Below the pieces are notes generated by a model, which saw nothing but the letters and a program-made list of their open reading frames with translations, did not search any database and was not told the DNA's origin. The position numbers and the translations under genes were made by a program. Source: Candidatus Sulfotelmatobacter sp. (lineage in GTDB: Bacteria; Acidobacteriota; Terriglobia; Acidiferrales; UBA7541). Taken from it: 64,000 bases of DNA. Location of the stretch: positions 25,292-89,291 of the forward strand of contig DASPSD010000031.1 of NCBI GenBank assembly GCA_035624115.1, written 5' to 3'. Each line of letters opens with the position of its first letter. Within the stretch, counting starts at the first letter, position 1. Below are positions 8,426 to 52,813 of the stretch, piece by piece.

Positions 8426-9427
8426 TTGTGGAGAAAATCTTTGGGCATTTCATCGAGCAGTCCGATTACCTCTTTTATCAGAAATCACTACCGGCATTTC
8501 AACGCCGCTGTCGTCGTTGACGCTGCGGAAGCCTACAACAGGCACCTGGCGAGTGGCGGCAAAATGTTCGTCACGCTCGCCGGGGCCATGAGCACGGCCG
8601 AACTCGGGTTGTCCCTGGCCGAGATGATCCGGCGGGACAAGGTGCATGGCATCTGCTGCACCGGGGCCAATCTCGAAGAGGATCTTTACAATCTCGTCGC
8701 CCACAACCATTACGAACGTGTCCCCCACTACCGCCAGTTGAGCCCGCAGCAGGAAGTCGATCTTCTCGAGCGGCACCTGAATCGCGTGACCGATACCTGC
8801 ATTCCCGAAGAGGAAGCCATGCGCCGCATCGAGCGAATCGTCATGGAAGAGTGGCAGGCGGCCGACAAGGCCGGGGACCGATTCTTTCCGCACGAGTTTC
8901 TGTACAAGATTCTCCGGGGACAGAAGCTCAAACAGTTCCATCAGATCGACCCGAAAGACAGTTGGATGGTTGCGGCTGCGGAAAAAAACCTGCCCCTGTT
9001 CGTTCCGGGGTGGGAGGATTCGACGCTCGGCAACATGTATGCCGCTCAGGTCATCAGCGGAAAGGTGAAAAACGTCACGACCATGCGAAGCGGTGTTGAA
9101 TACATGATTGAACTCGCGCGCTGGTACACCCAGTCGACTGCCGAATGGTCACTCGGCTTTTTTCAAGTTGGCGGGGGCATCGCCGGCGATTTCCCGATCT
9201 GTGTCGTCCCGATGCTCCATCAGGACCTCAGGCGAGAAAACGTGCCTCTGTGGGGTTACTTTTGCCAGATCAGCGATTCGACGACCAGCTATGGATCTTA
9301 CTCCGGTGCGGTGCCTAATGAGAAGATCACGTGGGGAAAGCTCGGCATCGATACACCGCGCTTTGTCATCGAATCGGATGCCACCATTGTTGCTCCGCTT
9401 ATCTTCGCCTATGTGCTGGGGTGGTAG
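8426..9427 (+). CDS. deoxyhypusine synthase-family protein
   Basis: HFNAAVVVDAAEAY...MFVTLAGAMSTAELG...ICCTGANLEEDL, typical of bacterial DHS-like proteins. TTG start is uncertain. Confidence 0.8.
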   Translation: MWRKSLGISSSSPITSFIRNHYRHFNAAVVVDAAEAYNRHLASGGKMFVTLAGAMSTAELGLSLAEMIRRDKVHGICCTGANLEEDLYNLVAHNHYERVPHYRQLSPQQEVDLLERHLNRVTDTCIPEEEAMRRIERIVMEEWQAADKAGDRFFPHEFLYKILRGQKLKQFHQIDPKDSWMVAAAEKNLPLFVPGWEDSTLGNMYAAQVISGKVKNVTTMRSGVEYMIELARWYTQSTAEWSLGFFQVGGGIAGDFPICVVPMLHQDLRRENVPLWGYFCQISDSTTSYGSYSGAVPNEKITWGKLGIDTPRFVIESDATIVAPLIFAYVLGW

Positions 9428-24362: not shown

Positions 24363-25121
24363 ATGACGAGCGAAATGAATCGGAAGCCGCGCATTGGTAT
24401 CCCGTATCGCACACGAAAAGAAGAACTTAAGGGCGAGCGCCGCAAGTACAACATGTATGTCGAGGCGGTGTGCCAGGGGGGTGGTGAACCAGTTCCAGTC
24501 TCGCTTGGTCTCGAACCGTCCGCCTTGAACGAGTTGGCCAACACTCTCGACGCTATCGTGTTACCTGGCAGCCCGATGGACGTCGATCCGGCGCGTTACC
24601 ACGAGTCTCGCCATCCGAAAACTGCCGACGGGGATGTAGAACGCGAGAAGACGGACCAGGCGCTGCTGGAGCACGCGTTTGCCGCGCACAAACCTGTTCT
24701 GGCGATCTGTTACGGAGTGCAGAGCCTGAACGTCTTTCTAGGGGGCACGCTAGTGCAAGATTTGCCCAGCGAGATCGGGACGCAAATCGCCCACCCGTGG
24801 ACAGGCCAGGAGCAGGGCGCTCCAGAACCGAGGCATCCGGTGCGGCTCGAGCCGGGGTCGCGGCTGGCTCGCTTGGCGGGAGCGGCGAAAGCGGAAGTGA
24901 ACAGTTCGCATCACCAATCGGTGCGCAAGCCGGGGCGTGGCTTGCGAGTTGCGGCGCACGCGGCCGATGGCGTGATCGAGGCGGTCGAATGGACGGGCGA
25001 TTCGAACTGGGTCACAGGGGTGCAGTGGCATCCCGAGCGGATGGCGCAGACGGATCGATTCGCGCAGTCGCTCTTCAAAGAGCTGATTTCGGCAGCCCGT
25101 CAAGTGCCGGTGCAGTCGTAA
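24363..25121 (+). CDS. gamma-glutamyl-gamma-aminobutyrate hydrolase-family class I glutamine amidotransferase (peptidase C26)
   Basis: LPGSPMDVDP...PVLAICYGVQSLNV (nucleophile Cys)...SSHHQSV...GVQWHPE. Confidence 0.85.
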   Translation: MTSEMNRKPRIGIPYRTRKEELKGERRKYNMYVEAVCQGGGEPVPVSLGLEPSALNELANTLDAIVLPGSPMDVDPARYHESRHPKTADGDVEREKTDQALLEHAFAAHKPVLAICYGVQSLNVFLGGTLVQDLPSEIGTQIAHPWTGQEQGAPEPRHPVRLEPGSRLARLAGAAKAEVNSSHHQSVRKPGRGLRVAAHAADGVIEAVEWTGDSNWVTGVQWHPERMAQTDRFAQSLFKELISAARQVPVQS

Positions 25122-33187: not shown

Positions 33188-33339
33188 GTTGACTTGCAGC
33201 TGAATGGCCTCAAACGCAAGTCTGCGACCCGATAACGATTTCGTCAAGTAAGGGGAGAGCAGCCCGGCTGGCAGCAGCAGCGGCTTGCTCGAGGTGCGCG
33301 GGTGTGGCACGCTAGCCGCGCCGATTGTGGCAAGCAACC

Positions 33340-34908
33340 ATGACTGAAGACCTCAAGCGTCACGATGGGCTGGAAGAGCTGCGGCGGCGCAGCGCCGAAG
33401 CCGAAGAAGGCGGCGGCAGAGAGCGCCGCGAGCGGCAGCACAAAGAAGGCAAATTGAGCGCGCGGGAGCGCATCGAGCTGCTGCTCGACGAAGGCACATT
33501 CGAGGAGCTCGACAAGTTCGTTCGGCACCGCTGCATCGATTTCGGAATGGAAGAGCAGCGGCCCGCGGGCGACGGCTTCATCACGGGCTTCGGCCGCATT
33601 GACGGGCGGCTCGTTTACGTCTTCGCGCAGGATTTTACCGTGTTCGGCGGCTCGCTTTCGGAAGCCAACGCCTCGAAAATCACGAAAATCATGGACCTGG
33701 CGATCCGCCAGGGCGCGCCGGTCATCGGGTTGAACGATTCCGGCGGAGCGCGGATTCAGGAAGGAGTGATGTCGCTCGCGGGCTACGCAGATATTTTCCT
33801 GCGCAACACGCTCTCAAGCGGCGTGATTCCGCAGATTAGCGCCATCATGGGGCCGTGCGCGGGCGGCGCGGTCTATTCGCCCGCGATCACCGATTTTATT
33901 TTCATGACGCGCGACACTTCCTACATGTTCGTCACCGGCCCGGACGTGATCAAGACGGTCACCCACGAGGAAGTGACCAAGCACGAGCTCGGCGGCGCCA
34001 TGACGCACAACGCCACGAGCGGCGTAGCCCATTTCATTGCCGCCGACGACGCCGAATGCCTGGCAATGATCCGCGAGCTATTGAGCTACATCCCCTCGAA
34101 TAATCTCGAGGACCCGCCGCGCCGCGCAACCTCGGATCCATGGGACCGCGCCAGTCCCGCGTTGAATACTCTCGTGCCAGAGGATCCGCTCAAGCCCTAC
34201 GACATCAAGGACGCGATTCAAGGCGTGGCGGACGACGGCGAATTTTTCGAGGTGCACGAGCACTATGCGAAAAATATCGTGGTGGGATTCGCGCGGCTGG
34301 AAGGGCGTCCCGTGGGAATCGTCGCGAACCAACCGGCGTTTCTCGCAGGTGTGCTCGATATCAACGCGTCGGTGAAAGGCGCTCGGTTCGTCCGCTTCTG
34401 CGACGCCTTCAATATTCCGCTCATCACGTTCGAGGACGTTCCGGGATTCCTGCCCGGAACACAGCAAGAGTTCGGAGGAATTATTCGTCACGGCGCAAAA
34501 TTGCTGTTCGCGTTTGCCGAAGCAACGGTGCCGAAAATTACCGTCATCACGCGCAAAGCCTACGGCGGAGCCTATTGCGTGATGGCTTCCAAACACATCC
34601 GCACCGACATGAATTTCGCGTGGCCGACGGCTGAAATCGCCGTGATGGGTCCCGAAGGCGCGGTGAATATCGTGTACAAGCGCGAGATCGACCGCGCCGC
34701 AGAGGGCGAGCGCGAAAAGTTGCGCCGCGAAAAAATCGAGGACTTCAGGACAAGGTTCGCAAATCCTTACGTGGCCGCCGAGCGCGGCTATATCGACGCG
34801 GTCATCGAGCCTTCGGAAACCCGCGCGAAACTCATCACGGCCTTGCGCTCGCTGGAAACGAAGCGCGACCTCAATCCCCGCAAAAAACACGGCAATATCC
34901 CGCTCTGA
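33340..34908 (+). CDS. pccB: acyl-CoA carboxylase carboxyltransferase (propionyl-CoA carboxylase beta / methylmalonyl-CoA carboxyltransferase 12S)
   Basis: [18 protein letters not shown]...[13 protein letters not shown]...[13 protein letters not shown]...[13 protein letters not shown]...ends KKHGNIPL*. Confidence 0.9.
34845..34908 (+). repeat. direct repeat, left copy (intact 3' end of pccB)
   Basis: 64 nt recur at 41126-41190. The 33-nt identical core is 34855-34887. Confidence 0.85.
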
Positions 34909-35084: not shown

Positions 35085-38051
35085 GTGAGCGATTATCTGG
35101 CGCGGATTACCGGCGCAGGCATTTCGACGGAAGCGAATGAAACGCTCGACCCAAACGATTGGAAGGGCTTTCGCGCGCAGGGACACCGCATGCTCGACGA
35201 TATCCTCGATTACATCGAAACGATTCGCGACCGCCCCGTGTGGCAGCCGATGACAGACGAGGTTCGAGCGCGGATGCGCGGCACTTTTCCGAGCCAGCCA
35301 GCCGATCTCGCCGAAGTCCATGGTGAATTTCTGCGGGATATTCTGCCTTTCGCCGTGGGCAACGTTCATCCGGGTTTCATGGGGTGGGTGCATGGCGGAG
35401 GGACGCCGGCCGGCATGCTGGCGGAGATGCTCGCTGCGGGACTGAACGCCAACGTGGGAGGCCGCGATCAAGCGCCGCTCGAACTCGAGCGTCAAGTGGT
35501 CCGCTGGATGCGCGAGATCTTTGGCTTTCCGGAGGGCGCGACGGGCCTATTTGTCACCGGAACTTCCATGGCGAATTTCATCGCCGTTACGATCGCCCGA
35601 GATGCGGCCCTCGGCTTTGATGTGCGCCGCCGCGGTGTCGCCGCCAAAGAAAAGCAGCTCACCGCTTACGCCTCAACCGGAGTTCACGGCTGCATCGCAA
35701 AGGCCTTGGATCTTTCCGGCATCGGCAGCGATGCGCTGCGGCTGATCCGAACCGACAATCGCTACCGCGTCGATCTCGCCACGCTGGAAAAGGCCATCCG
35801 GTGGGATCGCGATGCCGGGTTGACTCCCTTCCTGGTAGTGGGGACCGCAGGGACGGTGGACACAGGGGCCATCGACGATCTCGCGGGCCTCGCCGATCTA
35901 TGCCAGCGCGAGAAGCTCTGGTTTCACGTGGATGGAGCTTACGGGGCGCTGGCCAGGCTCGCTCCCGATCTCGCTCCAAGACTCGAGGGCATCGAACGCG
36001 CCGATTCACTCGGATTCGATTTTCACAAATGGGGACAAGTGCCCTACGATGCCGGCTTCCTTTTAGTGCGCGATAACGCGCTGCACTTGAACGCTTTCTC
36101 CACCGGCGCGGCATACCTCACGCGGTCCGATCGGGGATTGGCTGCGGGTTCACCCTGGCCCTGCGACTTCGGGCCGGATCTCTCGCGGGGCTTTCGAGCG
36201 CTGAAGACCTGGTTCACTTTGAAGGTTTACGGCACAGACGCGCTGGGAGCGGCGATTTCGCGCACCTGCGAATTAGCGCGCTACCTCGAAAGCCGCATTG
36301 CCGAGACACAGGAGCTCGAGCTGATGGCTCCCGTGGAACTCAATATCGTCTGTTTCCGTTACCGGGCGGAGGAGCCGGACCGCGTCAACGAAAAAATTAT
36401 CATCGGCCTGCAAGAGTCCGGGATCGTTGCGCCGTCTTCCACGGTGATCGGAGGGCGAGTGGCGATTCGAGCAGCAATCGTCAACCATCGGACAGGCCGG
36501 GCGGAGATCGATGCGCTGGTGCAAAATACCCTCTCTCTGGGCCGCTCTCTCCAATACACTCTGCTGCAAGGAAAGGCCGCGCAGCAGACCGCGGAGTTTG
36601 ATCTTCCGGCGGATTCGAAAACAGCCTTGCAGACGGTGGAGCAACAGTTGGTGTCGCAGCCGGGCTCTGTCGCCCTGCGGTTCCTGCGCGCCGGGATCCT
36701 CGAAAAAATGGGCCGGAAGGCGGAAGCCAGGAAGGCCTATATTGACTTGCTCCGCCTCGAGCCATCTCATCTAGGCGCGCTGAACCATCTCGGAAAACTT
36801 CTGGCCGCTGCCGGAAAGAAAATTGCGGCGCGGACGGTCTATTCCGAAGCGATTGCGCGGCATCCCGATGACCCCATGAGCCGCGTAAATTTTGCCGCCC
36901 TTCTAATAGAGGCCGGGGAGCCCGAGAAAGCTCGCGAGCACCTGGAGCACGCCCTGAAAATTGATTCCACGTGCCGGCTCGCCCATGCCGGCTTAGGGTT
37001 CGCGCTTGCGGACCTGGGAGATCCGGAGGGTGCTTCCGAGCACCGGCAAATCGCCTATCGCGGGCACTGCGTGATACCAGTGGAGTATTGCGGCGAGCAG
37101 CCGCCGATCACGGTCTTGGAGCTGGTCACCACCACCGGAGGGGGCGTCCGGGTGGAGAGCTTTTTGAGCGAGGGCATGTTCCAAAAATACCTCGTCGCCA
37201 CGGAGTTCTACGACTCGAGCACGACCTTGCCGCCTCATCAACTCGTAGTCAACGCCATCGGGGATGCCGATACGGCTCGGGCCGCACTGGACGGCGCCGA
37301 AATTCTGCTCCGCTATACAACCGCGCCTGTAATTAATCCGCCGGCAGCGGTCCTCGGGACGGGCCGTTGCGATGTTGCAAGGCGCCTTTCCGGGTTGCCA
37401 GGCGTGATTACTCCGCGGACTTTAATCTTTTCGCGCGAATCACTCGCCGGATCCGACGCCCGCACAATGCTCGATCGTCATGGATTCGAGTTTCCTCTTC
37501 TGCTGCGAACGCCCGGCTTTCACGGAGGCGAACACTTTCTGCGAGTGGAAAGTTTCGATGAACTTCCTGCGGCGCTTCAAGGGCTTCCGGGCCGTGATCT
37601 AAACGTGATCCAGTACCTCGATGCGCGCGGGGCTGACGGAAAGTGGCGCAAGTACCGCGTCATGATGATCGATGGACGGCTCTATCCGCTGCACGTGGCA
37701 ATCTCGCGCCATTGGAAAATCCACTATTTCAGCGCCGAGATGGCAGACAATGCGGAGCACCGCGCTGAGGACGCCAAGTTCCTCGAGGGCATGGCCGGCG
37801 TGCTTGGGCCCCGCGCCCTGACGGCACTCGAGCGAATTCAAAATATCCTCGGGCTCGATTATGGCGGCATTGATTTTGGTTTGAACGAATCCGGCGATAT
37901 CCTGCTCTTCGAAGCAAACGCCACGATGGCCGTTGTTCCATCCGACGCAGACTCCCGATGGGACTATCGCAATCCTACGGTGGAACGAATTAATCAAGCT
38001 GTGTTGCGGATGTTGATTGCGAGGGCAGGGGTGAACAACGAAGCTCGATGA
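35085..38051 (+). CDS. fusion protein: group II PLP-dependent amino-acid decarboxylase + TPR repeats + ATP-grasp-like ligase domain
   Basis: aa 1 to ~495 form a complete Pyridoxal_deC-type domain (HPGFMGW, TGTSMANF, HVDGAYG, PLP-Lys motif SLGFDFHKWG). aa ~530-680 are TPR (AEARKAYIDLLRLEPSH...). aa ~690-988 are ATP-grasp-like (FPLLLRTPGFHGG...WRKYRVMMIDGRLYP...LDYGGIDFGLNESGDILLFEANATM). Confidence 0.8.
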   Translation: MSDYLARITGAGISTEANETLDPNDWKGFRAQGHRMLDDILDYIETIRDRPVWQPMTDEVRARMRGTFPSQPADLAEVHGEFLRDILPFAVGNVHPGFMGWVHGGGTPAGMLAEMLAAGLNANVGGRDQAPLELERQVVRWMREIFGFPEGATGLFVTGTSMANFIAVTIARDAALGFDVRRRGVAAKEKQLTAYASTGVHGCIAKALDLSGIGSDALRLIRTDNRYRVDLATLEKAIRWDRDAGLTPFLVVGTAGTVDTGAIDDLAGLADLCQREKLWFHVDGAYGALARLAPDLAPRLEGIERADSLGFDFHKWGQVPYDAGFLLVRDNALHLNAFSTGAAYLTRSDRGLAAGSPWPCDFGPDLSRGFRALKTWFTLKVYGTDALGAAISRTCELARYLESRIAETQELELMAPVELNIVCFRYRAEEPDRVNEKIIIGLQESGIVAPSSTVIGGRVAIRAAIVNHRTGRAEIDALVQNTLSLGRSLQYTLLQGKAAQQTAEFDLPADSKTALQTVEQQLVSQPGSVALRFLRAGILEKMGRKAEARKAYIDLLRLEPSHLGALNHLGKLLAAAGKKIAARTVYSEAIARHPDDPMSRVNFAALLIEAGEPEKAREHLEHALKIDSTCRLAHAGLGFALADLGDPEGASEHRQIAYRGHCVIPVEYCGEQPPITVLELVTTTGGGVRVESFLSEGMFQKYLVATEFYDSSTTLPPHQLVVNAIGDADTARAALDGAEILLRYTTAPVINPPAAVLGTGRCDVARRLSGLPGVITPRTLIFSRESLAGSDARTMLDRHGFEFPLLLRTPGFHGGEHFLRVESFDELPAALQGLPGRDLNVIQYLDARGADGKWRKYRVMMIDGRLYPLHVAISRHWKIHYFSAEMADNAEHRAEDAKFLEGMAGVLGPRALTALERIQNILGLDYGGIDFGLNESGDILLFEANATMAVVPSDADSRWDYRNPTVERINQAVLRMLIARAGVNNEAR

Positions 38052-38078
38052 GTATTTCGTCTTGGCGGTCACCGCCAT

Positions 38079-39461
38079 TTATTTGTTTGTGCCCGACCGG
38101 ACCCGAGGCGCCGCTGCGGGGGCGCGGAATAAGTTGCAGGCTTTGGTAACCGCCGCCTGTGTACGAAGCTCCCTGGCTGGAATTTCCAGGTTCGCCCGCG
38201 TCAGGGCCAAATCCCTCTCGGCTGCTCTTTTGCGGAACCCGCCGCCTGTGATGTGAAGGAGCACATGGGATCCTGGGATGATTCTGTTGGACCTGACTGC
38301 CTGCATCAGCGCGGCGAGCGCAACCCCAGCGGCCGGGTCTAGATCAATCTCCTCGCATTCTTCAAAAAGCCGCATGGCCCGAAGAACTTCATTATTTCTG
38401 ACCCCGAACAGATCGCCTTGGCTTTCCTTCAGGACGTCAAACAAACCACCGCCAATTGCATAGGGCGGCCTTTGATTCGAAAGAACGGAGGCCAGAATTC
38501 GTCGCGTCAAGGCTCTGGCTCGGCTCCGTTCCATGCGGATGAATTCGCGCCGGCCTCTCCTCCAGGAATCCAGAATGGGGGTGAAGGGCAAGTTCTGGCT
38601 GAGCATCAGCCGGGGGAGCGTGCGACTGAATCGTGAATTTTGGGTCAATCGTTTTGCGGCCACATGGGCCGCGATGGCTCCAGCGCCGCTGCTAATGGCT
38701 TGAAAATAGTAATCCGGCAGGGCGCCGATGGTTTCCACGGCGCTCAGCATCGCGGCTCCCAGCCCGTCGCGGCGCCCCACGTTTCGGACACCGCCCTCAC
38801 GCCGGAATCCTTCGCGCCGCGAAACAGCGTCCCCCAAGGCAATCGCGTCAGAATAGTCCGCATTCCCTGAGAGAGAGACGATTTTCACAGAGGGGCCAAG
38901 CGGGCGGGTGAACTGCATTGCCTTCATACCGCTCGCGGGAACGACAATCAGGCAGCGAATGCCGTTTTCAGAGCAGATTCGAGCGAAGGCTGCTGCGGAA
39001 TTCCCAGCCGATGCCACCACCAGAACTTCTGAGCCGCTCTGGGGAATTCGAGACAGAACCCCGTAAGCTTCCAGCTCCTTGAAAGTGGCGGTCTCGAGCC
39101 TGGCGCCTCTTTCCGGCCAATATCCGCTGAAGGTGATCCAAAGATTCGGAAGGCGGAGAATCGAGCTGAGACGCGCGCTTTTGTAAGTGACGGGAATAGC
39201 GGCTCCGGCCAACAGGTTCGCTGCAGGCAACCAACAGCGGTATCGGTACAAACCATCTTGTGTCTCATCGCATACGAGCGTGCGAGAAGAATACAGGGTG
39301 GTCAGCAAGGAAGCGGAGTGCGAGCGGGGACATTCGAGCATCCAACCATCGTCCGTGAATCGACAGCCGCAGGCCGGGCAAGCGAGCTGATAGTGCGCTG
39401 CCTTCTCGCTGGGGCGTTCCCGTTTGGGGACATCGAGATCCCGAATCGGGCTTTCTTTCAC
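38079..39461 (-). CDS. threonine synthase-like fold-type II PLP enzyme, resembling the cysteate synthase subgroup
   Basis: N-terminal Cys-rich segment (YQLACPACGCRF...LECPRSH). PLP-Lys context ETATFKELEA. VVASAGNSAAAFARICSENGIRCLIVVP. Subgroup assignment comes from memory of family motifs and is not verified. Confidence 0.65.
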   Translation of the reverse strand: MKESPIRDLDVPKRERPSEKAAHYQLACPACGCRFTDDGWMLECPRSHSASLLTTLYSSRTLVCDETQDGLYRYRCWLPAANLLAGAAIPVTYKSARLSSILRLPNLWITFSGYWPERGARLETATFKELEAYGVLSRIPQSGSEVLVVASAGNSAAAFARICSENGIRCLIVVPASGMKAMQFTRPLGPSVKIVSLSGNADYSDAIALGDAVSRREGFRREGGVRNVGRRDGLGAAMLSAVETIGALPDYYFQAISSGAGAIAAHVAAKRLTQNSRFSRTLPRLMLSQNLPFTPILDSWRRGRREFIRMERSRARALTRRILASVLSNQRPPYAIGGGLFDVLKESQGDLFGVRNNEVLRAMRLFEECEEIDLDPAAGVALAALMQAVRSNRIIPGSHVLLHITGGGFRKRAAERDLALTRANLEIPARELRTQAAVTKACNLFRAPAAAPRVRSGTNK

Positions 39462-39688
39462 TCTTCAGGAACCTCATTGCGGGCATCTGGCGGCACTGCG
39501 ATTTAATTATTTTTTTCTTAGAATTGCTCGCCGCGCGCGCGGCGTCCGGACGGACTCTTGCAATCGAGGTTCCCCAGCCTGCCTCCGCAATGGATGGCGG
39601 AACAGAGTGGGGCCAGTCCGAGTGGCACAGCGATTGCAAATCTATCCCGGCGGCCGGGTCGGCCGAACCGGCCATTCAAGATAGACCG

Positions 39689-41116
39689 ATGAAATCCAAT
39701 TCAAGCTTGGTAGATCAGAGATTTCGGCGGGCCCTCGCCCTCCAAAAGCAGGGCCACACCGTGGAGGCTAGAAACGAATACCTGAAGGTGCTTGAAATCG
39801 ATCCTTCGCACGGGCCAGCGCTCAACAACGTTGGGAGCCTCTTGCTCGCCGCGGGAAACCTTCCAGCCGCGCGAATCGCGTATGCCGAGGCCGTCGCCCG
39901 GCATCCGAATGATCCCGTGAGCCGGTCGAATTTAGGGAATCTGCTGCGCGAAGAAGGTGAGCTGGCCGCCGCACGCGAGCACTATGAGCACGCTCTACGC
40001 GTGGATCCGAATCTCGTGCAGGCGCATGAGGGTTTGTCCTATGTGCTGGCGGACCTGGGAGATGAAGAGCGCGCCGCATGGCACCGCCGCAAAGCCTTTG
40101 AACATCGTTTCCTGATCGCCTTGCCCTATCTCGGAAAAGGCAAGGGAATATCGGTGCTGCAGCTCGTGTCGTCCAACGGCGGCAACGTGCGAACGCGGGA
40201 ATTTCTCGATGAGCGCGTGTTCCGGACCTTTGTTGTCCTTCCAGAGTTCTACGATCGAAAGGTTGCCTTGCCTCCGCATCAAATGGTATTCAATGCCATC
40301 GGTGACGCCGACGTCGCAGCAGCGGCGCTCACGGCTGCCGAGCCTTTTCTCGCTCTCACTCAAGCACCCGTCATCAACCCGCCCTCGGCCGTGCTCGCTA
40401 CGCGCCGGCTCGACATATCCAGGCGCCTTTCGGGATTGCCGGGGGTGGTTACCCCCAGAACGGTCGCCCTGCCGCGAGAGATTCTCACTGCTCCCGACGC
40501 CGAGGCCGCGCTCGCCGCACAGGGATTCCGATTCCCCGTCCTATTGCGAACGCCCGGTTTCCACACCGGCGACCATTTTGTGCGGGCCAAAATTCCCGAT
40601 GAGCTTCCTGCCGCGCTCGCGCAGCTTCCCGGGCAACAATTGCTGGCAATCCAGTACCTCGAGGCACGCGGGACCGATGAAAAGTGGCGCAAGTACCGAG
40701 TGATGATGATCGATGGGAAGCTCTACCCGCTGCACGTGGCCCTCTCCTCGAATTGGAAGGTTCACTATTTCAGCTCCGAAATGGCGGATAATTCCCTTGG
40801 CCGCGCCGAGGAAGCCCAGTTCCTGGCCAATATGGCCGGTGTCCTCGGGCCGCGCGTCTTGGACGCTCTCACGCGGATTCAGAAAACTCTCGGCCTCGAT
40901 TACGGTGGAATCGATTTCGGATTGAACCGGGACGGCGACCTGGTGCTCTTCGAGGCGAATGCCACGATGGTGGTCCTTTCCCCCGGCGCGGACCCCCGCT
41001 GGGACTACCGTCGCACTGCGGTGGAGCAAATTTACCAAGCGGTGGCGAACATGCTGCTGGCCAGAGCGAACGCCGGTGCGCAGCACACGAATTGGAGTTC
41101 GGCCGGTGCGGATTGA
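39689..41116 (+). CDS. TPR + ATP-grasp-like protein, paralog of the C-terminal half of 35085..38051
   Basis: Aligns along its whole length with aa ~520-988 of the fusion protein (e.g. WRKYRVMMIDGKLYPLHVA, LDYGGIDFGLNRDGDLVLFEANATM). The start could also be upstream (track ORF starts at 39524). Confidence 0.8.
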   Translation: MKSNSSLVDQRFRRALALQKQGHTVEARNEYLKVLEIDPSHGPALNNVGSLLLAAGNLPAARIAYAEAVARHPNDPVSRSNLGNLLREEGELAAAREHYEHALRVDPNLVQAHEGLSYVLADLGDEERAAWHRRKAFEHRFLIALPYLGKGKGISVLQLVSSNGGNVRTREFLDERVFRTFVVLPEFYDRKVALPPHQMVFNAIGDADVAAAALTAAEPFLALTQAPVINPPSAVLATRRLDISRRLSGLPGVVTPRTVALPREILTAPDAEAALAAQGFRFPVLLRTPGFHTGDHFVRAKIPDELPAALAQLPGQQLLAIQYLEARGTDEKWRKYRVMMIDGKLYPLHVALSSNWKVHYFSSEMADNSLGRAEEAQFLANMAGVLGPRVLDALTRIQKTLGLDYGGIDFGLNRDGDLVLFEANATMVVLSPGADPRWDYRRTAVEQIYQAVANMLLARANAGAQHTNWSSAGAD

Positions 41117-43338: not shown

Positions 43339-44100
43339 TCAGGTTTTCGTCGCGCGCTTTTTCCTGTGTGAATGCGCCCGAGCCCTGTGCGCAAGAGGCA
43401 AAATTTGGACACCACCCTTGCCGCCGATGAATACCTGCGAGGCAAATCCAAGAAAGAGTCCGTGCTCCATCACACCGACCACGTGGTCGAGGTGGTGTGC
43501 GATTTCTTTGGGGTCGGCCATCGGACCGAAGGCGCAATCAATGATGTAGTGGCCGCCGTCGGTGATGAACGGCTTCTCGTTCGTACCAAAGCGAAGCTTG
43601 GGATGCGCGCCTAGCCCGACCAATTTTCGCTCCGTGGCCTGCCAGCCAAAGGGCGCCACTTCGACAGGGACGGAGACGAGCGAGCCCAGACGTGCGACGA
43701 CCTTGCTTTCGTCCGCCACCACAATCATGCGCTTGCTGGTAGCAGCGACGATTTTTTCCCGCAGGAGCGCCCCGCCATGACCCTTGATGAGAAACAGCGT
43801 TCGCCGCTCGACTTCGTCCGCGCCGTCGATCGTCAGATCGATCTCGGAACATTCGCCGAGCGTAGCCAGCGGGATGCCAAGGCTGCGCGCCTGTTCGGCA
43901 GTGCGTTCGGATGTCGGGATGCCGGTGAATCGAAGCCGCTCTTCGTGGAATCGTCGGCCCAGGGCGGCAACGGCAAATGCGGCCGTTGATCCCGTGCCGA
44001 GGCCAACCACCATTCCGCTCTCGATAAGTTTCGCGGCCGCCTCAGCCGCAGCTCGTTTCCACTGATCCTGTTCCGAAGCGCTCATCGCCTGGCTCACCAT
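43339..44100 (-). CDS. rpiA: ribose-5-phosphate isomerase A
   Basis: VVGLGTGSTAAF...IDLTIDGADEV...LIKGHGGALLREKIVA. Confidence 0.9.
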   Translation of the reverse strand: MVSQAMSASEQDQWKRAAAEAAAKLIESGMVVGLGTGSTAAFAVAALGRRFHEERLRFTGIPTSERTAEQARSLGIPLATLGECSEIDLTIDGADEVERRTLFLIKGHGGALLREKIVAATSKRMIVVADESKVVARLGSLVSVPVEVAPFGWQATERKLVGLGAHPKLRFGTNEKPFITDGGHYIIDCAFGPMADPKEIAHHLDHVVGVMEHGLFLGFASQVFIGGKGGVQILPLAHRARAHSHRKKRATKT

Positions 44101-44210
44101 AGCTCGTGCCCACCCGCGGGCATCATATCCGGTCAATTGCGGGTTGCCAACCCTGGCCGGGCGGGTGCGAATGCCGCGTGCTAAGATGGCGCCCGCGAGT
44201 GCGAGCCAGA

Positions 44211-45755
44211 ATGTTCCGCAAAATTTTGATAGCCAACCGGGGAGAGATCGCGGTGCGCATTATGCGTGCCTGCCGCGAGCTGGGAATACGTTCGGTGGGA
44301 GTGTTCAGCGATGTGGACCGGGCTGCGCTGCATGTGCGCCTCGCGGACGAGGCGTATCCAATTGGCCCCGCGCCCTCGCGTGAGAGCTACCTTGTAATTG
44401 AAAAAATTCTCGGCGTTGCAAAGCGAGCCGGGGCCGACGCCATTCATCCGGGCTACGGCTTCCTTGCCGAAAATCCGGCGCTCCCGCGCGCCTGCGAAGC
44501 CGCTGGCGTGACGTTCATTGGGCCTGCGCCTGAAGCAATGGAAAAACTGGGAGCGAAGACCGCGGCGCGCCATCTGGCGCGCGCGGCTAAAGTGCCGACG
44601 GTTCCGGGAACTCTCGACCCGATTGAAAAAATTGAGGACGTGGCGGACATCGCCCGGAAAACAGGCTACCCGATTTTGCTGAAGGCCGTGGCGGGCGGCG
44701 GTGGAAAAGGGATGCGGCTCGTCGAGAGTGAAGGCCAGCTGGCCGCGGCGTGGCGCGATGCCTCTTCAGAAGCACAAAACGCATTCGGTGACGGACGCCT
44801 CTATCTTGAAAAGTACCTTTCGAGGCCGAGGCACGTCGAGATTCAGGTGCTCGCGGATCAGCACGGGAAAGTGATCCATCTGGGCGAGCGCGAATGTTCC
44901 GTGCAGCGGCGCCATCAGAAAGTGATTGAGGAATCGCCTTCGCCGGTGATGACACCCGAACTTAGGCAAGCAATGGGCGAAGCCGCCGTCAAGCTTGCGC
45001 GCGCGGGAAACTACACGAACGCGGGCACCGTTGAATTTCTCGTGGATGAGCACCGAAATTTCTATTTTCTGGAAATGAATACCCGCCTTCAGGTGGAGCA
45101 TCCTGTGACAGAGATGGTGACGTCGCTTGATCTGGTGAAGCTCCAAATTCATATCGCCGCGGGCGAGCCGCTGCCGATTTCGCAACAGGATGTTGCGCTG
45201 CGCGGTCACGCCATCGAATGCCGGATTTATGCGGAAGACCCGGACAACAACTTCTTTCCCTGTCCGGGGACGGTTGGTGCGCGGCGAGTGCCTGGTGGCC
45301 CCTCGGTGCGGCTTGATGATGGAGTCTATCCCCGCTGGACAATCCCGAACGAGTACGATCCGCTGCTCGGAAAGTTGATTGCCTGGGGAGCGGACCGCCC
45401 CGAGGCAATCGCGCGGCTTCAGAGAGCGCTTGCGGAATACTATGCGGGGGGCATCAAGACGAATATTTCGCTCTTCCAGCGAATCCTCGCTGCGCCTGAT
45501 TTTCAGAAAGGCGAGATCCACACCCGCTGGCTCGATGATTTCCTCCGCGAGGAGCAGGATCGGCGAAGTGCGAGGGCGGAAGTCGAGACAAGCGCGGCGC
45601 ACGTAAGGGAAGCCGCAATCTTGGCTGCGGCGTTGTGGCACCGATCGATGAATGGTCACGATGGGAATCAACCGGGAAACGCGGCGACAGGATCCCCATC
45701 ACGCTGGAAGACGGAAGCGCGGCGCGAGCAGGTGGAGCGCGACCCGCAGCCGTGA
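44211..45755 (+). CDS. accC: biotin carboxylase subunit of an acyl-CoA carboxylase
   Basis: MFRKILIANRGEIAVRIMRACRELGI...HPGYGFLAEN...GGGGKGMR...EMNTRLQVEHPVTE. No BCCP domain in this ORF. Confidence 0.9.
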   Translation: MFRKILIANRGEIAVRIMRACRELGIRSVGVFSDVDRAALHVRLADEAYPIGPAPSRESYLVIEKILGVAKRAGADAIHPGYGFLAENPALPRACEAAGVTFIGPAPEAMEKLGAKTAARHLARAAKVPTVPGTLDPIEKIEDVADIARKTGYPILLKAVAGGGGKGMRLVESEGQLAAAWRDASSEAQNAFGDGRLYLEKYLSRPRHVEIQVLADQHGKVIHLGERECSVQRRHQKVIEESPSPVMTPELRQAMGEAAVKLARAGNYTNAGTVEFLVDEHRNFYFLEMNTRLQVEHPVTEMVTSLDLVKLQIHIAAGEPLPISQQDVALRGHAIECRIYAEDPDNNFFPCPGTVGARRVPGGPSVRLDDGVYPRWTIPNEYDPLLGKLIAWGADRPEAIARLQRALAEYYAGGIKTNISLFQRILAAPDFQKGEIHTRWLDDFLREEQDRRSARAEVETSAAHVREAAILAAALWHRSMNGHDGNQPGNAATGSPSRWKTEARREQVERDPQP

Positions 45756-45794
45756 CACGCGGAGGAGAGAATTTAGAGTGAGGACGCGGACGAA

Positions 45795-46292
45795 GTGAAG
45801 CTCGAAATCGAACTCGACGGGAAGGCACATTCGGTGGAGATCACCGGGGCAGGAAAAGAACTTCGGTGCGTGATCGATGGAAAACAGGTGAATGCAGACG
45901 CAATCGAACTCTCGCCCGGAATTTATTCCATTCTGGCCGGCGGCAAATCGCTCGAGGCACGGGTAGAAACGGTTGGTGGAGATCTGCGCGTAAATGTGAG
46001 TGGACGTGAGTTTCGTGCCGCCATCAGAGATCCACGCCACTGGAGCCGGAATCGCGGCGCCGCGCTCGAAGCCGAAGGCCGGCAGCAAGTGGTGGCGCCG
46101 ATGCCGGGGAAAATTATCCGGCTGCTGGTGGGAGCGGGCGAGCACGTCGAGGCGCGGCAGGGTTTGCTTGTGGTGGAAGCCATGAAGATGCAAAACGAAA
46201 TTCGGTCGCCGAAATCGGGCACGGTCGAGCGGCTTTTAGTCAAAGAGGGCCAGGCCGTCAACGCCGGCGAAGCCCTCGCTGTGATTGCCTAG
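45795..46292 (+). CDS. biotin carboxyl carrier (biotinyl/lipoyl domain) protein
   Basis: C-terminal VAPMPGKIIRLLV...LLVVEAMKMQNEIRSPKSGTV (AMKM biotinylation motif). Confidence 0.85.
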   Translation: MKLEIELDGKAHSVEITGAGKELRCVIDGKQVNADAIELSPGIYSILAGGKSLEARVETVGGDLRVNVSGREFRAAIRDPRHWSRNRGAALEAEGRQQVVAPMPGKIIRLLVGAGEHVEARQGLLVVEAMKMQNEIRSPKSGTVERLLVKEGQAVNAGEALAVIA

Positions 46293-50673: not shown

Positions 50674-50860
50674 GGGAAATTTCCTCAAGCAACCGATCCT
50701 TGTCTTGGATGAGCGGCCATGCGGAGAAATTCAACGGCAGTGAGGAAAGGCCCGCTGCAATCTTCAACGCTTTCTCTTCATAACTCAAGCGCAAAGCAGG
50801 GTCGACCTGCACGCAAATCCTCCAGAAAAGTTCTTGGACGGGCCGACGACAGGAGTCCCT

Positions 50861-51637
50861 ATGAGTAAAGCCATCTTATACGACGCCACGATATGCATCG
50901 GCTGCAAGTTGTGCGAGCAAGCTTGCGCGGAACGCAACGGCCTTCCCTATAACGAAGAGATAGCCGCCGAATCCAAGCAGTCCGAAAACAAGTTCACCGT
51001 GGTTTTGGCTAAGGGCGACAAATTCATGCGGCGGCTGTGCATGAATTGCCAGGATCCCACTTGTGCGTCGGTTTGCCCGGTGGGAGCGTTCCACAAGAGT
51101 GCTGATGGCCCGGTGACGTATGAAGCTTCCCGGTGCATCGGGTGCCGTTACTGCATGCTGGCGTGCCCGTTCTCGGTGCCGAAATATGAGTGGAGCAAAG
51201 CGCTTCCTCTAGTCCGCAAATGCGACATGTGCGCGGATCGCGTCGCCAAAGGGCAGCAAACCGCCTGCGCCGCTGCATGCCCGACCGGGGCTACGAAGTT
51301 TGGAGATCGAGACGCCCTGATTGCGGAGGCGCGCGCGCGAATTGCTTCGAACCCCGGCCAATACGTCGATCACATTTATGGACTCAACGAGGTGGGTGGA
51401 ACCTCCGTGTTACTCCTCTCGAGCATCCCCTTTGAGGAGTTCGGTTACAAGCAAAACCTGGGCGACCAGTCCATGCCGATCCTTACGTATCGCGCGCTTT
51501 CCCACATCCCCGATCTTGTGACCATAGGAGCCGCATTGCTGGGCGGAATCTGGTGGATCACGGACCGCCGCACTGCTGTCGCCGCCGCTGAAGGGAGTGC
51601 CAGGGAATCGCAAGCATGGCCCGAGAAGAAGAGTTGA
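50861..51637 (+). CDS. 4Fe-4S dicluster-type ferredoxin subunit (HybA/DmsB-like) with C-terminal TM helix
   Basis: Four Cys clusters: CIGCKLCEQAC, CMNCQDPTCASVCP, CIGCRYCMLACP, CDMC...CAAACP. C-terminal helix LVTIGAALLGGIWWI. No Tat signal seen. Confidence 0.85.
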   Translation: MSKAILYDATICIGCKLCEQACAERNGLPYNEEIAAESKQSENKFTVVLAKGDKFMRRLCMNCQDPTCASVCPVGAFHKSADGPVTYEASRCIGCRYCMLACPFSVPKYEWSKALPLVRKCDMCADRVAKGQQTACAAACPTGATKFGDRDALIAEARARIASNPGQYVDHIYGLNEVGGTSVLLLSSIPFEEFGYKQNLGDQSMPILTYRALSHIPDLVTIGAALLGGIWWITDRRTAVAAAEGSARESQAWPEKKS

Positions 51638-51649
51638 GGAGAAATCAAG

Positions 51650-52813
51650 ATGTTTAAGCCGGGGATAACGTTCTGGAAAGGAATCCTGGCGGCGGTGCTG
51701 GCCGCTGGCGCTTACGCCACGGTCCTTCGATTTACTCGAGGGCTGGGCGCCACGACAAATTTGAGTGACGCTTTCCCCTGGGGCCTGTGGATCGGATTCG
51801 ACGTGATGTGCGGCGTGATGCTGGCCGCCGGCGGCTTCACCCTGACGGCCACCGTATATATCTTTCATCTGAAAAAGTTTCAGCCGATTGTGAGACCTAC
51901 GATTCTTACGGCCTTCCTCGGCTATCTATTGGTTGTTGTCGCGCTGCTTTTCGACCTCGGGCGCGGATACCGCATCTGGCATCCCCTGGTTATGTGGAAT
52001 CCAAGATCGGTCATGTTCGAAGTGGCGTGGTGTGTGACGCTTTACACGACGGTGCTCTCGCTGGAATTTGCGCCGGTGATCTTCGAGCGCCTGCGAATGG
52101 AAAAGCTGCTGAAAATCCAGCATGCCGTGTCGATCCCCCTCGTTATCCTGGGTGTGATCCTCTCGACGCTGCATCAGTCGTCGCTCGGGAGCCTGTACTT
52201 GATCGTCCCGAACAAACTGCATCCGCTCTGGTACACGCCGCTTCTGCCCGTGCTTTTCTTTGTTTCCGCGATTTGTGTCGGCCTGGCCATGACGATTTTC
52301 GAATCCTGTATGAGCTCACGGCATTTCGGGAAGCAACTCGAGATTTCACTGTTGCGGAGTCTTGGGCGGACGCTTCTTGTGGCGCTGTGTGTGTATTCCG
52401 TCATCCGCTTTCAGGATTTATTCGAGCGAGGGGCGCTGAAACTCGTAGCCCATCGGAGCTATGAGGCGAATCTGTTCTTGCTGGAAGTGGTGATGGGCTT
52501 GATTGTCCCGATCGGATTGCTGATGGTTCCAAAAATCCGTGAAAGCGCCGGGGGACTCTACCTCAGCTCCGTGCTGGTAGTCCTCGGCTTCGTCACGAAC
52601 CGAATGAACGTGGCGATCACGGGCATGGAATCTTCAGCCGGAATGCACTATTTCCCCAAATGGACAGAACTGGCAGTCACAGCGAGCATCATCGGCGTGG
52701 CATTCGCCATTTTCGCGCTCGCGGTGAAGTATCTGCCGATCTTCCAGGCGGAAAATGGGCACGAGGCTGCTCTGGAGCCGCGTGCGCCCGAGTTGTCCAA
52801 TGCCAACCCCTGA
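51650..52813 (+). CDS. NrfD/PsrC/HybB-family integral membrane subunit
   Basis: 387 aa, about 10 TM helices. The gene directly follows the FeS subunit, as in HybAB/PsrBC-type modules. Confidence 0.75.
   Translation: MFKPGITFWKGILAAVLAAGAYATVLRFTRGLGATTNLSDAFPWGLWIGFDVMCGVMLAAGGFTLTATVYIFHLKKFQPIVRPTILTAFLGYLLVVVALLFDLGRGYRIWHPLVMWNPRSVMFEVAWCVTLYTTVLSLEFAPVIFERLRMEKLLKIQHAVSIPLVILGVILSTLHQSSLGSLYLIVPNKLHPLWYTPLLPVLFFVSAICVGLAMTIFESCMSSRHFGKQLEISLLRSLGRTLLVALCVYSVIRFQDLFERGALKLVAHRSYEANLFLLEVVMGLIVPIGLLMVPKIRESAGGLYLSSVLVVLGFVTNRMNVAITGMESSAGMHYFPKWTELAVTASIIGVAFAIFALAVKYLPIFQAENGHEAALEPRAPELSNANP

Follow-up and report, generated by a model that had tools for sequence, protein, structure and literature searches.

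A 64-kb window of DNA from a peat-soil metagenome-assembled genome (MAG) of Candidatus Sulfotelmatobacter sp. (Acidobacteriota, Terriglobales) carries a three-gene module that encodes a cysteate synthase family protein (gene cysS), a fusion of a group II pyridoxal 5'-phosphate (PLP) decarboxylase to tetratricopeptide repeats (TPRs) and an ATP-grasp domain, and a second, stand-alone TPR/ATP-grasp protein (Table 1). We found strong evidence that cysS, a group II decarboxylase and an ATP-dependent amide-forming enzyme are functionally coupled, since this trio recurs in at least five arrangements, with two decarboxylase lineages, two ligase superfamilies and unrelated flanking genes. The most likely mechanism, to which we assign a probability of about 0.4, is that cysteate is decarboxylated to taurine, which an ATP-grasp domain would then join in amide linkage to a carboxylate. 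An original prediction for this region placed three open reading frames (ORFs) here, all of which are present with the expected coordinates and strands, and proposed that they form an amine-synthesis-then-ligation module. The cysS family, the ATP-grasp fold and the recurring linkage support that proposal; the expected CSAD-like decarboxylase does not, and cysS is usually absent beside related decarboxylase genes.

On sequence grounds, the cysS product is a member of the cysteate synthase family rather than a threonine synthase (ThrC). It scored 424.7 bits against the hidden Markov model (HMM) TIGR03844 (cysteate_syn), well above the curated equivalog cut-off of 324.9, and only 17-63 bits against threonine synthase models with cut-offs of 167-421; the best ThrC-type model gave 62.6 bits (cut-off 303) and TIGR00260 gave 42.1 bits (cut-off 167.1). 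The comparison proposed as a check in the original prediction is thus decided in favour of cysteate synthase. A match to PF00291 (96.7 bits) identifies a fold-type II PLP enzyme, in agreement with the earlier description of a threonine-synthase-fold protein, and both motifs on which that description was based are present: the (S/T)xxFK Schiff-base motif, as TATFKELEA, in which Lys128 is assigned from knowledge of the motif, and a Cys-rich N-terminus. Homologues of the protein are named cysteate synthase by both NCBI and JGI. From its family, the enzyme is expected to convert O-phospho-L-serine and sulfite to L-cysteate, as are the cysteate synthases of Methanosarcinales (coenzyme M (CoM) route) and Bacteroidota (sulfonolipid route), which the curated HMM assigns to the same family. 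In the CoM route cysteate synthase is partnered by an aminotransferase and sulfopyruvate decarboxylase, and in the sulfonolipid route by a cysteate acyltransferase; unlike in either, the downstream partners here are a decarboxylase and amide ligases.

A metagenome scan with the cysteate synthase gave 80 loci, which we then screened by tblastn for neighbouring genes. Twenty-two encode a cysS product at least 60% identical to that of the window, and in 16 of these a copy of the window decarboxylase (64-75% identical) is directly adjacent, as the full 1010-1060-aa fusion wherever the contig suffices. Two of the 22 combine cysS with an Asn-synthase-like gene lacking the glutaminase domain and with a different group II decarboxylase (36% identical), and four have no decarboxylase, three of them on contigs that run on for less than 550 bp on the side in question. 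None of the 34 loci with a 50-59%-identical cysS product carries a decarboxylase; seven are in non-ribosomal peptide synthetase (NRPS) clusters and five lie beside a class-III aminotransferase. Among the 24 loci with less than 50% identity, four carry the decarboxylase and one an ATP-grasp gene only. The ligase in this last group is of a proteobacterial type (~410 aa, with vestigial TPRs) that is ~30% identical to the window ligase and 60% identical to that of Sulfuriferula. Gene order varies: cysS, decarboxylase and ATP-grasp follow one another in L150 and L163, the fusion precedes cysS with overlapping stop and start codons in L151, and a divergent cysS/decarboxylase pair and the order of the window itself are also found. 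A second TPR/ATP-grasp gene, which had been taken as part of the module, is peculiar to the window.

Two sets of cysS loci are worth describing separately. In L003/L004 (7873-12934), L105 and L113, an Asn-synthase-like protein (584 aa), cysteate synthase and the 36%-identical group II decarboxylase (509 aa) are encoded in that order; near the L003 trio are genes for a PMT_2 glycosyltransferase and for a full-length Asn synthase of the type associated with exopolysaccharides. The cysS homologues inside NRPS clusters (L005/L006, L118, L120, L124, L126, L129, L130 and L147) are 52-59% identical to that of the window, and the L005/L006 loci also encode a TauD-family dioxygenase, a CmlA-like beta-hydroxylase and a thioesterase. 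This setting suggests that cysteate or a related amino acid is a building block of non-ribosomal peptides there.

A complementary scan with one genome per species identified 80 loci encoding decarboxylases 64-77% identical to that of the window. Carriers belong to Terriglobales, Bryobacterales, Betaproteobacteria (Sulfuriferula, Gallionellaceae and Ferrovaceae), Stellaceae, Riflebacteria and a deltaproteobacterium. Two of them, Tunturiibacter psychrotolerans X4BP1 and Sulfuriferula sp. GW1, are isolates. The decarboxylase-TPR-ATP-grasp fusion is present in 41/80 loci, decarboxylase and ATP-grasp are adjacent genes in 10/80, and the decarboxylase is followed by the proteobacterial-type ATP-grasp gene in 9/80. 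Fifteen of the 80 have no ATP-grasp gene within 10 kb of the decarboxylase, four are on truncated contigs, and in one the contig is cut at the decarboxylase and a distant ATP-grasp gene lies on the other side. Hence, 60 of the 76 informative loci in this species-level set have decarboxylase and ATP-grasp either fused or in neighbouring genes. Unbiased ORF clustering of the decarboxylase loci gave no recurrent partner beyond the ligase, cysS, flagellar genes and cl13, a gene for a protein of ~520 aa that follows the ligase in five proteobacterial-type operons. cl13 and cysS never occur together in one locus. The cl13 product has no match in Pfam (E<=10), in NCBIfam, or in single-sequence and profile searches of the PDB, although the invariant motifs SGTD, DAxQ and TGSK are reminiscent of a fold-type I (class-V-like) PLP enzyme.

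The fusion matches PF00282 with 222.5 bits at residues 64-427, followed by TPRs at about residues 510-657 and then ~330 aa with no Pfam hit that are assigned an ATP-grasp fold through a structural model of the paralogous domain (see below); the group II decarboxylase fused to TPR/ATP-grasp that was originally described is therefore borne out. Lys315, His201, Asp283 and catalytic-loop Tyr344 align with their equivalents in solved group II decarboxylases, and because these residues are kept we regard the domain as a true decarboxylase, not an aldehyde synthase. Its best solved relatives are the R. gnavus Trp decarboxylase (4OBU; 243 bits), DOPA decarboxylase and plant aromatic amino acid decarboxylases (AADCs), and scores against CSAD, GADL1 and GAD are together 130-155 bits (CSAD 143-145, GAD 130-155). 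NCBIfam equivalogs all fall below their cut-offs: 178.5 bits for L-2,4-diaminobutyrate decarboxylase (cut-off 900), 133.1 for PanP (606) and 85.5 for MfnA (299).

The substrate pocket differs from those of these relatives. After HPxF, the decarboxylase has W-V-H103-G-G-G where CrTDC, PpDDC and AtPAAS have FFP or YFP, and the segment from the partner subunit reads N123-V-G125-G-R127 where they have V/I-G-F. The hydrophobic residues that line the aromatic pocket in published structures are swapped for N93, H103, N123, G125 and S367, together with an invariant R127, and the replacements in the pocket segments are invariant from Acidobacteriota to Proteobacteria. An ordinary AADC, as the best PDB matches would suggest, is ruled out by these residues. 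Asn123 and Gly125 are presumably at the register of CSAD S114/Y116, the further positions of the Agnello motif, and His103 is at the register of CSAD Phe94. The proposed check of selectivity residues therefore went against a CSAD-like enzyme, with His/Asn/Gly where CSAD has Phe94/Ser/Tyr, and a CSAD orthologue is ruled out both by His103 in place of Phe94 and by the lower score (143-145 bits vs 243 for 4OBU). Residue 94 is Phe in CSAD, Ser in GAD and Tyr in GADL1, and mutagenesis has linked this position to substrate choice. Judged from sequence, the pocket resembles that of neither AADCs nor CSAD; being polar, roomy and basic, it would fit a small anionic side chain, whether sulfonate, carboxylate or phosphate. 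Conversion of cysteate to taurine is plausible for such a pocket, with aspartate to beta-alanine as the main competing reaction.

Residue 129, in the motif GGRD-Q/H-xP, tracks linkage. Decarboxylases linked to cysS or cl13 have Gln in 24 cases and His in one, and unlinked decarboxylases have Gln in 21 and His in 41 (Fisher p = 4e-8, uncorrected for phylogeny). In a neighbour-joining tree, cysS-linked decarboxylases are confined to Gln129 clades (that of Terriglobales, that of the window and the proteobacterial type), and the Bryobacterales fusions all have His129. Stand-alone decarboxylases with no nearby ligase form their own Asn103/His129 clade (L014, L017, L020, L023, L036, L039, L042, L055 and L057), which may be a distinct subfamily that, for example, supplies a free amine.

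The C-terminal domains of the fusion and of the stand-alone protein are 62% identical, as expected from the earlier description of a second TPR/ATP-grasp protein. Their assignment to the ATP-grasp fold, also made in the original prediction, is supported by structure and not by sequence models. No Pfam family matched the C-terminal domains at E<=0.01, the RimK model TIGR00768 gave 17.9 bits (cut-off 143.4), and a 25-homologue profile of the domain had zero sequence matches in the PDB. However, an AlphaFold2 (AF2) model of the domain from the stand-alone protein (predicted local distance difference test (pLDDT) 88.8, predicted template-modelling score (pTM) 0.87) matched D-Ala-D-Ala ligase, RimK, synapsin and ITPK1 in a Foldseek search of the PDB (E ~1e-11, probability 1.00), with more than 600 matches at E<=1e-3, DdlB first, and TM scores of 0.5-0.63. 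By this modelling, the C-terminal domains are of the ATP-grasp fold. The motif D930-x12-E943-x-N945 of the fusion is also present in the stand-alone protein and is invariant in 25/25 and 51/51 aligned homologues; by its spacing, we take it to correspond to D257/E270/N272 of DdlB. From the superfamily, the domain would ligate a carboxylate to an amine via an acyl-phosphate, although its modelled likeness to ITPK1 and synapsin means that it may have a kinase-type activity. In the model of the full-length stand-alone protein (pLDDT 91.1, pTM 0.87), eight TPR helices that resemble OGT-type TPRs in Foldseek searches are packed on the ATP-grasp body, which itself matches Ddl and RimK in those searches.

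This ligase family is large: an HMM search with the ATP-grasp domain retrieved 3180 clusters at 50% identity with E<=1e-3, 1204 of them with E<=1e-30, and JGI labels homologues 'glutathione synthase/RimK-type ligase'. Its members include a TPR-ATP-grasp-cl13 fusion (P0375; cl13 part at residues 482-976, 51% identical to Sulfuriferula cl13), a TPR-ATP-grasp-class-V aminotransferase (Aminotran_5) fusion of 888 aa (P0379, L174:6001-8667), and an 889-aa protein with two ATP-grasp copies parted by TPRs (P0372). Through these fusion types the ligase family is repeatedly connected with PLP enzymes of amino-acid formation or remodelling. We looked for a conserved neighbourhood around stand-alone TPR-ATP-grasp genes and found none. 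Decarboxylase-TPR-ATP-grasp and TPR-ATP-grasp proteins thus make up a very large, highly conserved family, with no family model or characterised member, that databases label just 'TPR protein' or 'pyridoxal-dependent decarboxylase'.

In the pathway that we favour, cysteate synthase would join O-phospho-L-serine and sulfite to give L-cysteate, the decarboxylase domain would strip the alpha-carboxylate of cysteate to give taurine (or something closely similar), and the ATP-grasp domain would activate a carboxylate as an acyl-phosphate that the amine attacks, yielding an N-acyl-taurine-type amide. Fusion of the two activities would pass the amine straight to the ligase. The TPR module, rigidly packed on the ATP-grasp domain, presumably picks the carboxylate-bearing partner. 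At about even odds, this carboxylate would belong to an envelope or flagellar protein or glycan and not to a free metabolite; the second TPR/ATP-grasp protein, a paralogue, may modify the same acceptor or attach another unit. For anoxic subsurface communities, an anaerobic route to taurine through cysteate synthase and a decarboxylase was proposed in a 2025 paper, which found no genome with both. If the linear pathway is correct, the module is a genetically linked, oxygen-independent bacterial route from phosphoserine and sulfite through cysteate to taurine. Many Acidobacteriota of peat and soil have the cysS and decarboxylase genes side by side, a finding of relevance to the cycling of organosulfur compounds in wetlands.

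Several observations weigh against cysteate being the general substrate, or taurine the general product. cysS adjoins the decarboxylase in only 3/80 decarboxylase loci (L019, L024 and L061); set beside the 60/76 with a ligase, this indicates a conserved core of decarboxylase plus ATP-grasp to which cysS is an add-on in a subset, and the co-occurrence anticipated in the original prediction is seen from the side of cysS (16/22 close loci) but rarely from that of the decarboxylase. An unlinked Gln129 fusion is encoded on a 3.35-Mb contig (L016; L007 is on the same contig) that is absent from the 120 best cysS homologues, all at least 52% identical, so cysteate would not be the sole substrate across the family. 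L152 has cysS followed by an ATP-grasp gene with no decarboxylase in 6 kb. By sequence, the decarboxylase is nearer to Trp and DOPA decarboxylases than to CSAD and GAD, it does not have Phe at the CSAD Phe94 position, its second-best NCBIfam match is PanP, a PLP aspartate decarboxylase, and the residue 129 statistic lacks a correction for phylogeny. Finally, at L173 (6001-9332) the P0375 gene is convergent, with a 4-bp overlap, with a gene for PanD (pyruvoyl aspartate decarboxylase, PF02261), amid an MptE-like/Maf-type gene, an ATPgrasp_ST gene, a Bac_transf sugar transferase and Poly_export; this setting may indicate that the amine is beta-alanine and the acceptor a glycan.

Much of this would be accommodated if the decarboxylase acted on a common anionic amino acid, converting Asp to beta-alanine or O-phosphoserine to ethanolamine phosphate, with cysteate as a second building block ligated as the acid or amine partner by either ATP-grasp enzyme. 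Possible products include a beta-alanyl/cysteate pseudo-dipeptide and an acceptor capped with cysteate. We regard this main alternative as possible, if somewhat doubtful. The decarboxylase-ligase loci that lack cysS (the L016 contig, with no close cysS, included), the arrangement in L152, the PanP match (133 bits) and the PanD neighbour of the TPR-ATP-grasp-cl13 fusion all agree with it. Pocket motifs are also the same in cysS-linked and unlinked members of one clade, the window has two ligase paralogues, as two ligations would need, and there is a precedent in Cj1436, which decarboxylates phosphoserine for an ATP-dependent amidoligase. Against it, cysS is directly beside a group II decarboxylase across arrangements, even a non-orthologous one (36% identical) in L003, L105 and L113; the order cysS, decarboxylase, ATP-grasp reads as a linear pathway; Gln129 tracks linkage to cysS or cl13; and the PanD adjacency is one convergent case. 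CSAD-type acidic amino-acid decarboxylases take Asp, cysteine sulfinate and cysteate, and since such enzymes accept both substrates, the data would be consistent with one another if the decarboxylase used cysteate in the presence of cysS and aspartate where there is no cysteate. Under the taurine pathway, too, the decarboxylase probably also takes aspartate in genomes with no cysteate synthase.

It is improbable that the threonine-synthase-fold enzyme makes another beta-substituted alanine, with a different nucleophile replacing the phosphate of O-phosphoserine, that is then decarboxylated and ligated. Bacterial members of the cysteate synthase family are placed by sequence, their 52-59%-identical homologues in NRPS clusters, with TauD or with class-III aminotransferases suggest diverse roles, and no CoM or sulfonolipid partner gene was found among the Pfam-scanned window genes; however, the score is 100 bits over the equivalog cut-off of a model built on a characterised archaeal enzyme, and the NCBI and JGI pipelines both call cysteate synthase. 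Adjacency could also have no functional meaning, with an unrelated fate for cysteate and a separate role for the decarboxylase-ligase, as might be supposed from the lack of any other conserved neighbour and from the appearance of the window's four genes plus rpiA as an insertion between carboxylase subunit genes. Linkage in at least five gene orders, with two decarboxylase lineages, two ligase types and unrelated flanks, makes this hardly credible.

With regard to the acceptor in the taurine pathway, we detected flagellar genes within 10 kb of 13/61 species-level decarboxylase-plus-ligase loci (L031, L035, L040, L048, L058, L063, L068, L070, L074, L075, L084, L088 and L024), as compared with 0/82 control loci totalling 0.96 Mb (Fisher p = 7e-6, uncorrected). 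Five metagenome loci (L097, L099, L104, L107 and L109) are also near flagellar genes. The flagellar neighbours span four lineages: among them, Bryobacterales have motAB and fliF/G/I, three betaproteobacterial genera have fliF/G/I or fliK beside the operon, and Riflebacteria have flgK. MotA/B-like genes also follow cysS on several Terriglobales contigs. Large separate TPR proteins are encoded directly downstream in L150 and L163. The rigid OGT-like TPR arm, the TPR neighbours, the P0375 locus and the flagellar enrichment are hints of a macromolecular or glycan acceptor. Cj1436/Cj1437/Cj1438 (see below) set a precedent for decorating polymer carboxylates with an amine through an ATP-dependent ligase supplied by PLP enzymes, and S. 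aureus CP1 contains a uronic acid that bears a taurine amide. Conversely, fusions to metabolic enzymes, the permease in the window and the MfnA/MfnD precedent are hints of a small-molecule product. More broadly, TPR plus ATP-grasp proteins might be macromolecule-directed amidoligases, in which the TPRs recruit a protein or a glycan linked to one, in many cases from the flagellum or cell surface, and a fused or neighbouring PLP partner (group II decarboxylase, cl13, class-V aminotransferase or cysteate synthase) makes the amine, here resulting in covalent 'taurinylation' of a flagellar or envelope carboxylate. We consider this rather unlikely. If true, taurinylation would be a type of modification as yet undescribed in bacterial proteins. 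Whatever the substrate, the fusions to PLP enzymes and the flagellar enrichment are concrete leads.

Other signalling and motility genes lie near individual loci. In L070, fliK, an ORF, the decarboxylase and the ligase follow one another on one strand. Genes of c-di-GMP signalling recur beside the module: one for a GGDEF protein is directly after cysS in five Terriglobales loci (L019, L093, L095, L100 and L114) and after cl13 in Sulfuriferula (L088:14558-16111), and in a Ferrovaceae MAG the decarboxylase gene is preceded by one for an HD-GYP-type protein (L090:8771-9994).

The logic of the pathway is already known, as is the cysteate synthase family. A close parallel is MfnA/MfnD of methanofuran synthesis, in which a group II PLP decarboxylase (MfnA, tyrosine decarboxylase) makes an amine that an ATP-grasp enzyme (MfnD, tyramine:L-glutamate ligase) joins to a carboxylate; the superfamilies and the logic are the same. 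Unlike MfnA, the window decarboxylase has a polar rather than aromatic pocket and is not orthologous (TIGR03812 85.5 bits vs 299), and unlike MfnA/MfnD the activities are fused via TPRs, an upstream enzyme makes the amino acid and there is no methanofuran context. In the HS:2 capsule glucuronamide system of C. jejuni (Cj1436/Cj1437/Cj1438C), a PLP decarboxylase makes ethanolamine phosphate from L-serine phosphate, and an ATP-dependent amidoligase (Cj1438) puts the amine on C6 of glucuronic acid in the growing polymer. O-phosphoserine is the entry metabolite in both systems, but that of Campylobacter has no TPR, no fusion and no sulfonate; Cj1436 is of the aminotransferase fold rather than a group II decarboxylase. 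In animals, CSAD and GADL1 are group II decarboxylases that take Asp, cysteine sulfinate and cysteate, and carnosine synthase is an ATP-grasp enzyme that ligates a decarboxylation product. The animal taurine route needs O2 for cysteine dioxygenase, whereas the route proposed for the window would not. RimK/LysX-type protein-carboxylate ligases are also similar, with RimK (5zct/5zk6) among the closest folds (E ~1e-10), and the TPRs would fit a protein substrate; however, TIGR00768 scored 17.9 bits against a cut-off of 143, and RimK substrate-loop motifs are not recognisable in the window ligases. The searchable literature yielded no description of the fused decarboxylase-TPR-ATP-grasp family, its coupling to cysS or its flagellar association. 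The earlier claim that no characterised system has this gene combination thus stands for the combination and not for the underlying logic, given MfnA/MfnD and Cj1436/Cj1438.

Within the window, the fusion and cysteate synthase genes converge across a 27-nt gap that holds a GC-rich hairpin. Terminator-like sites in the region are as numerous as in shuffled sequence, and promoter and terminator scans of the region were at background level, this hairpin excepted. GenBank names the fusion 'pyridoxal-dependent decarboxylase', the cysS product 'cysteate synthase' and the stand-alone TPR/ATP-grasp protein 'tetratricopeptide repeat protein'; the ORF of the last may begin at 39524, with the GenBank start at M56. 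The fusion sequence is that of an identical protein in 6 public records, and the cysS product is 100% identical to HXZ11793.1. The permease gene beyond the module is ruled out as a conserved part of it, since 0/160 related loci have a homologue next to the module.

Table 1. Features of the module and its surroundings in the 64-kb window, and cl13 genes at related loci (positions with a locus number refer to that locus).
Feature	Position	Strand	Basis or remark
988-aa fusion, HXZ11792.1	35085..38051	+	group II PLP decarboxylase + TPR + ATP-grasp; ORF, PF00282, TPR families
decarboxylase domain of fusion, residues 1-490	35085..36554	+	alignment to solved group II decarboxylases
decarboxylase pocket motif HPGFMGWVHGGG	35367-35402	+	invariant across phyla
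decarboxylase pocket motif NANVGGRDQAP	35445-35477	+	invariant across phyla
PLP Lys315 motif FDFHKW	36015-36032	+	decarboxylase domain of fusion
TPR linker of fusion, residues ~505-660	36597..37064	+	Pfam TPR_2, TPR_14, TPR_16 etc. at residues 510-657
ATP-grasp domain of fusion, residues 661-988	37065..38048	+	62% identity to modelled paralogous domain
putative Mg-ligand motif GIDFGL of fusion	37866-37883	+	D930
putative Mg-ligand motif LFEANATM of fusion	37905-37928	+	E943, N945
GC-rich hairpin, likely terminator	38063..38077		TGGCGGTCACCGCCA, then T-rich tail; consensus match only
cysteate synthase family protein, 460 aa, HXZ11793.1	38079..39461	-	TIGR03844
putative PLP Lys128 in TATFKELEA, residues 124-132	39066-39092	-	cysteate synthase; motif
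N-terminal Cys cluster CPACGCRF...LECPRSH, residues 28-48	39318-39380	-	cysteate synthase
stand-alone TPR + ATP-grasp protein, 475 aa, HXZ11794.1	39689..41116	+	Pfam TPR; AF2 model
TPR part of stand-alone protein	~39707-40099	+	Pfam TPR
ATP-grasp part of stand-alone protein	~40106-41098	+	Foldseek
APC-family amino-acid permease, 625 aa	41215..43092	-	PF13520 102 bits; module membership uncertain
rpiA	43339-44136	-	
cl13	L088:12688-14253	+	
cl13	L084:12905-14470	+	
cl13	L092:8198-9844	+	
cl13	L090:12476-13951	+	
cl13	L048:13728-15737	+	

The module, permease gene and rpiA lie between a carboxyltransferase gene (33325-34908) and genes for biotin carboxylase and biotin carboxyl carrier protein (44106-46292). 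The acyl-CoA carboxylase subunit genes are thereby parted by ~9 kb, as if this stretch had been inserted into a carboxylase operon. In tblastn searches, seven flagellar proteins gave 0 matches in the window, Pfam scans of ~40 window ORFs recognised no flagellar, CoM or sulfonolipid partner gene, and an Rfam scan of the whole window gave no family at the gathering score. Elsewhere in the window, a Peptidase_C26 gene (PuuD-like gamma-glutamyl-amine hydrolase family; 24363-25121, + strand) lies 10 kb upstream of the module, and a deoxyhypusine/homospermidine synthase-like gene is at 8426-9427 (+ strand). A 4Fe-4S dicluster and NrfD-type membrane protein pair (50834-52813, + strand) is followed by genes for a sensor kinase and a sigma-54 response regulator.

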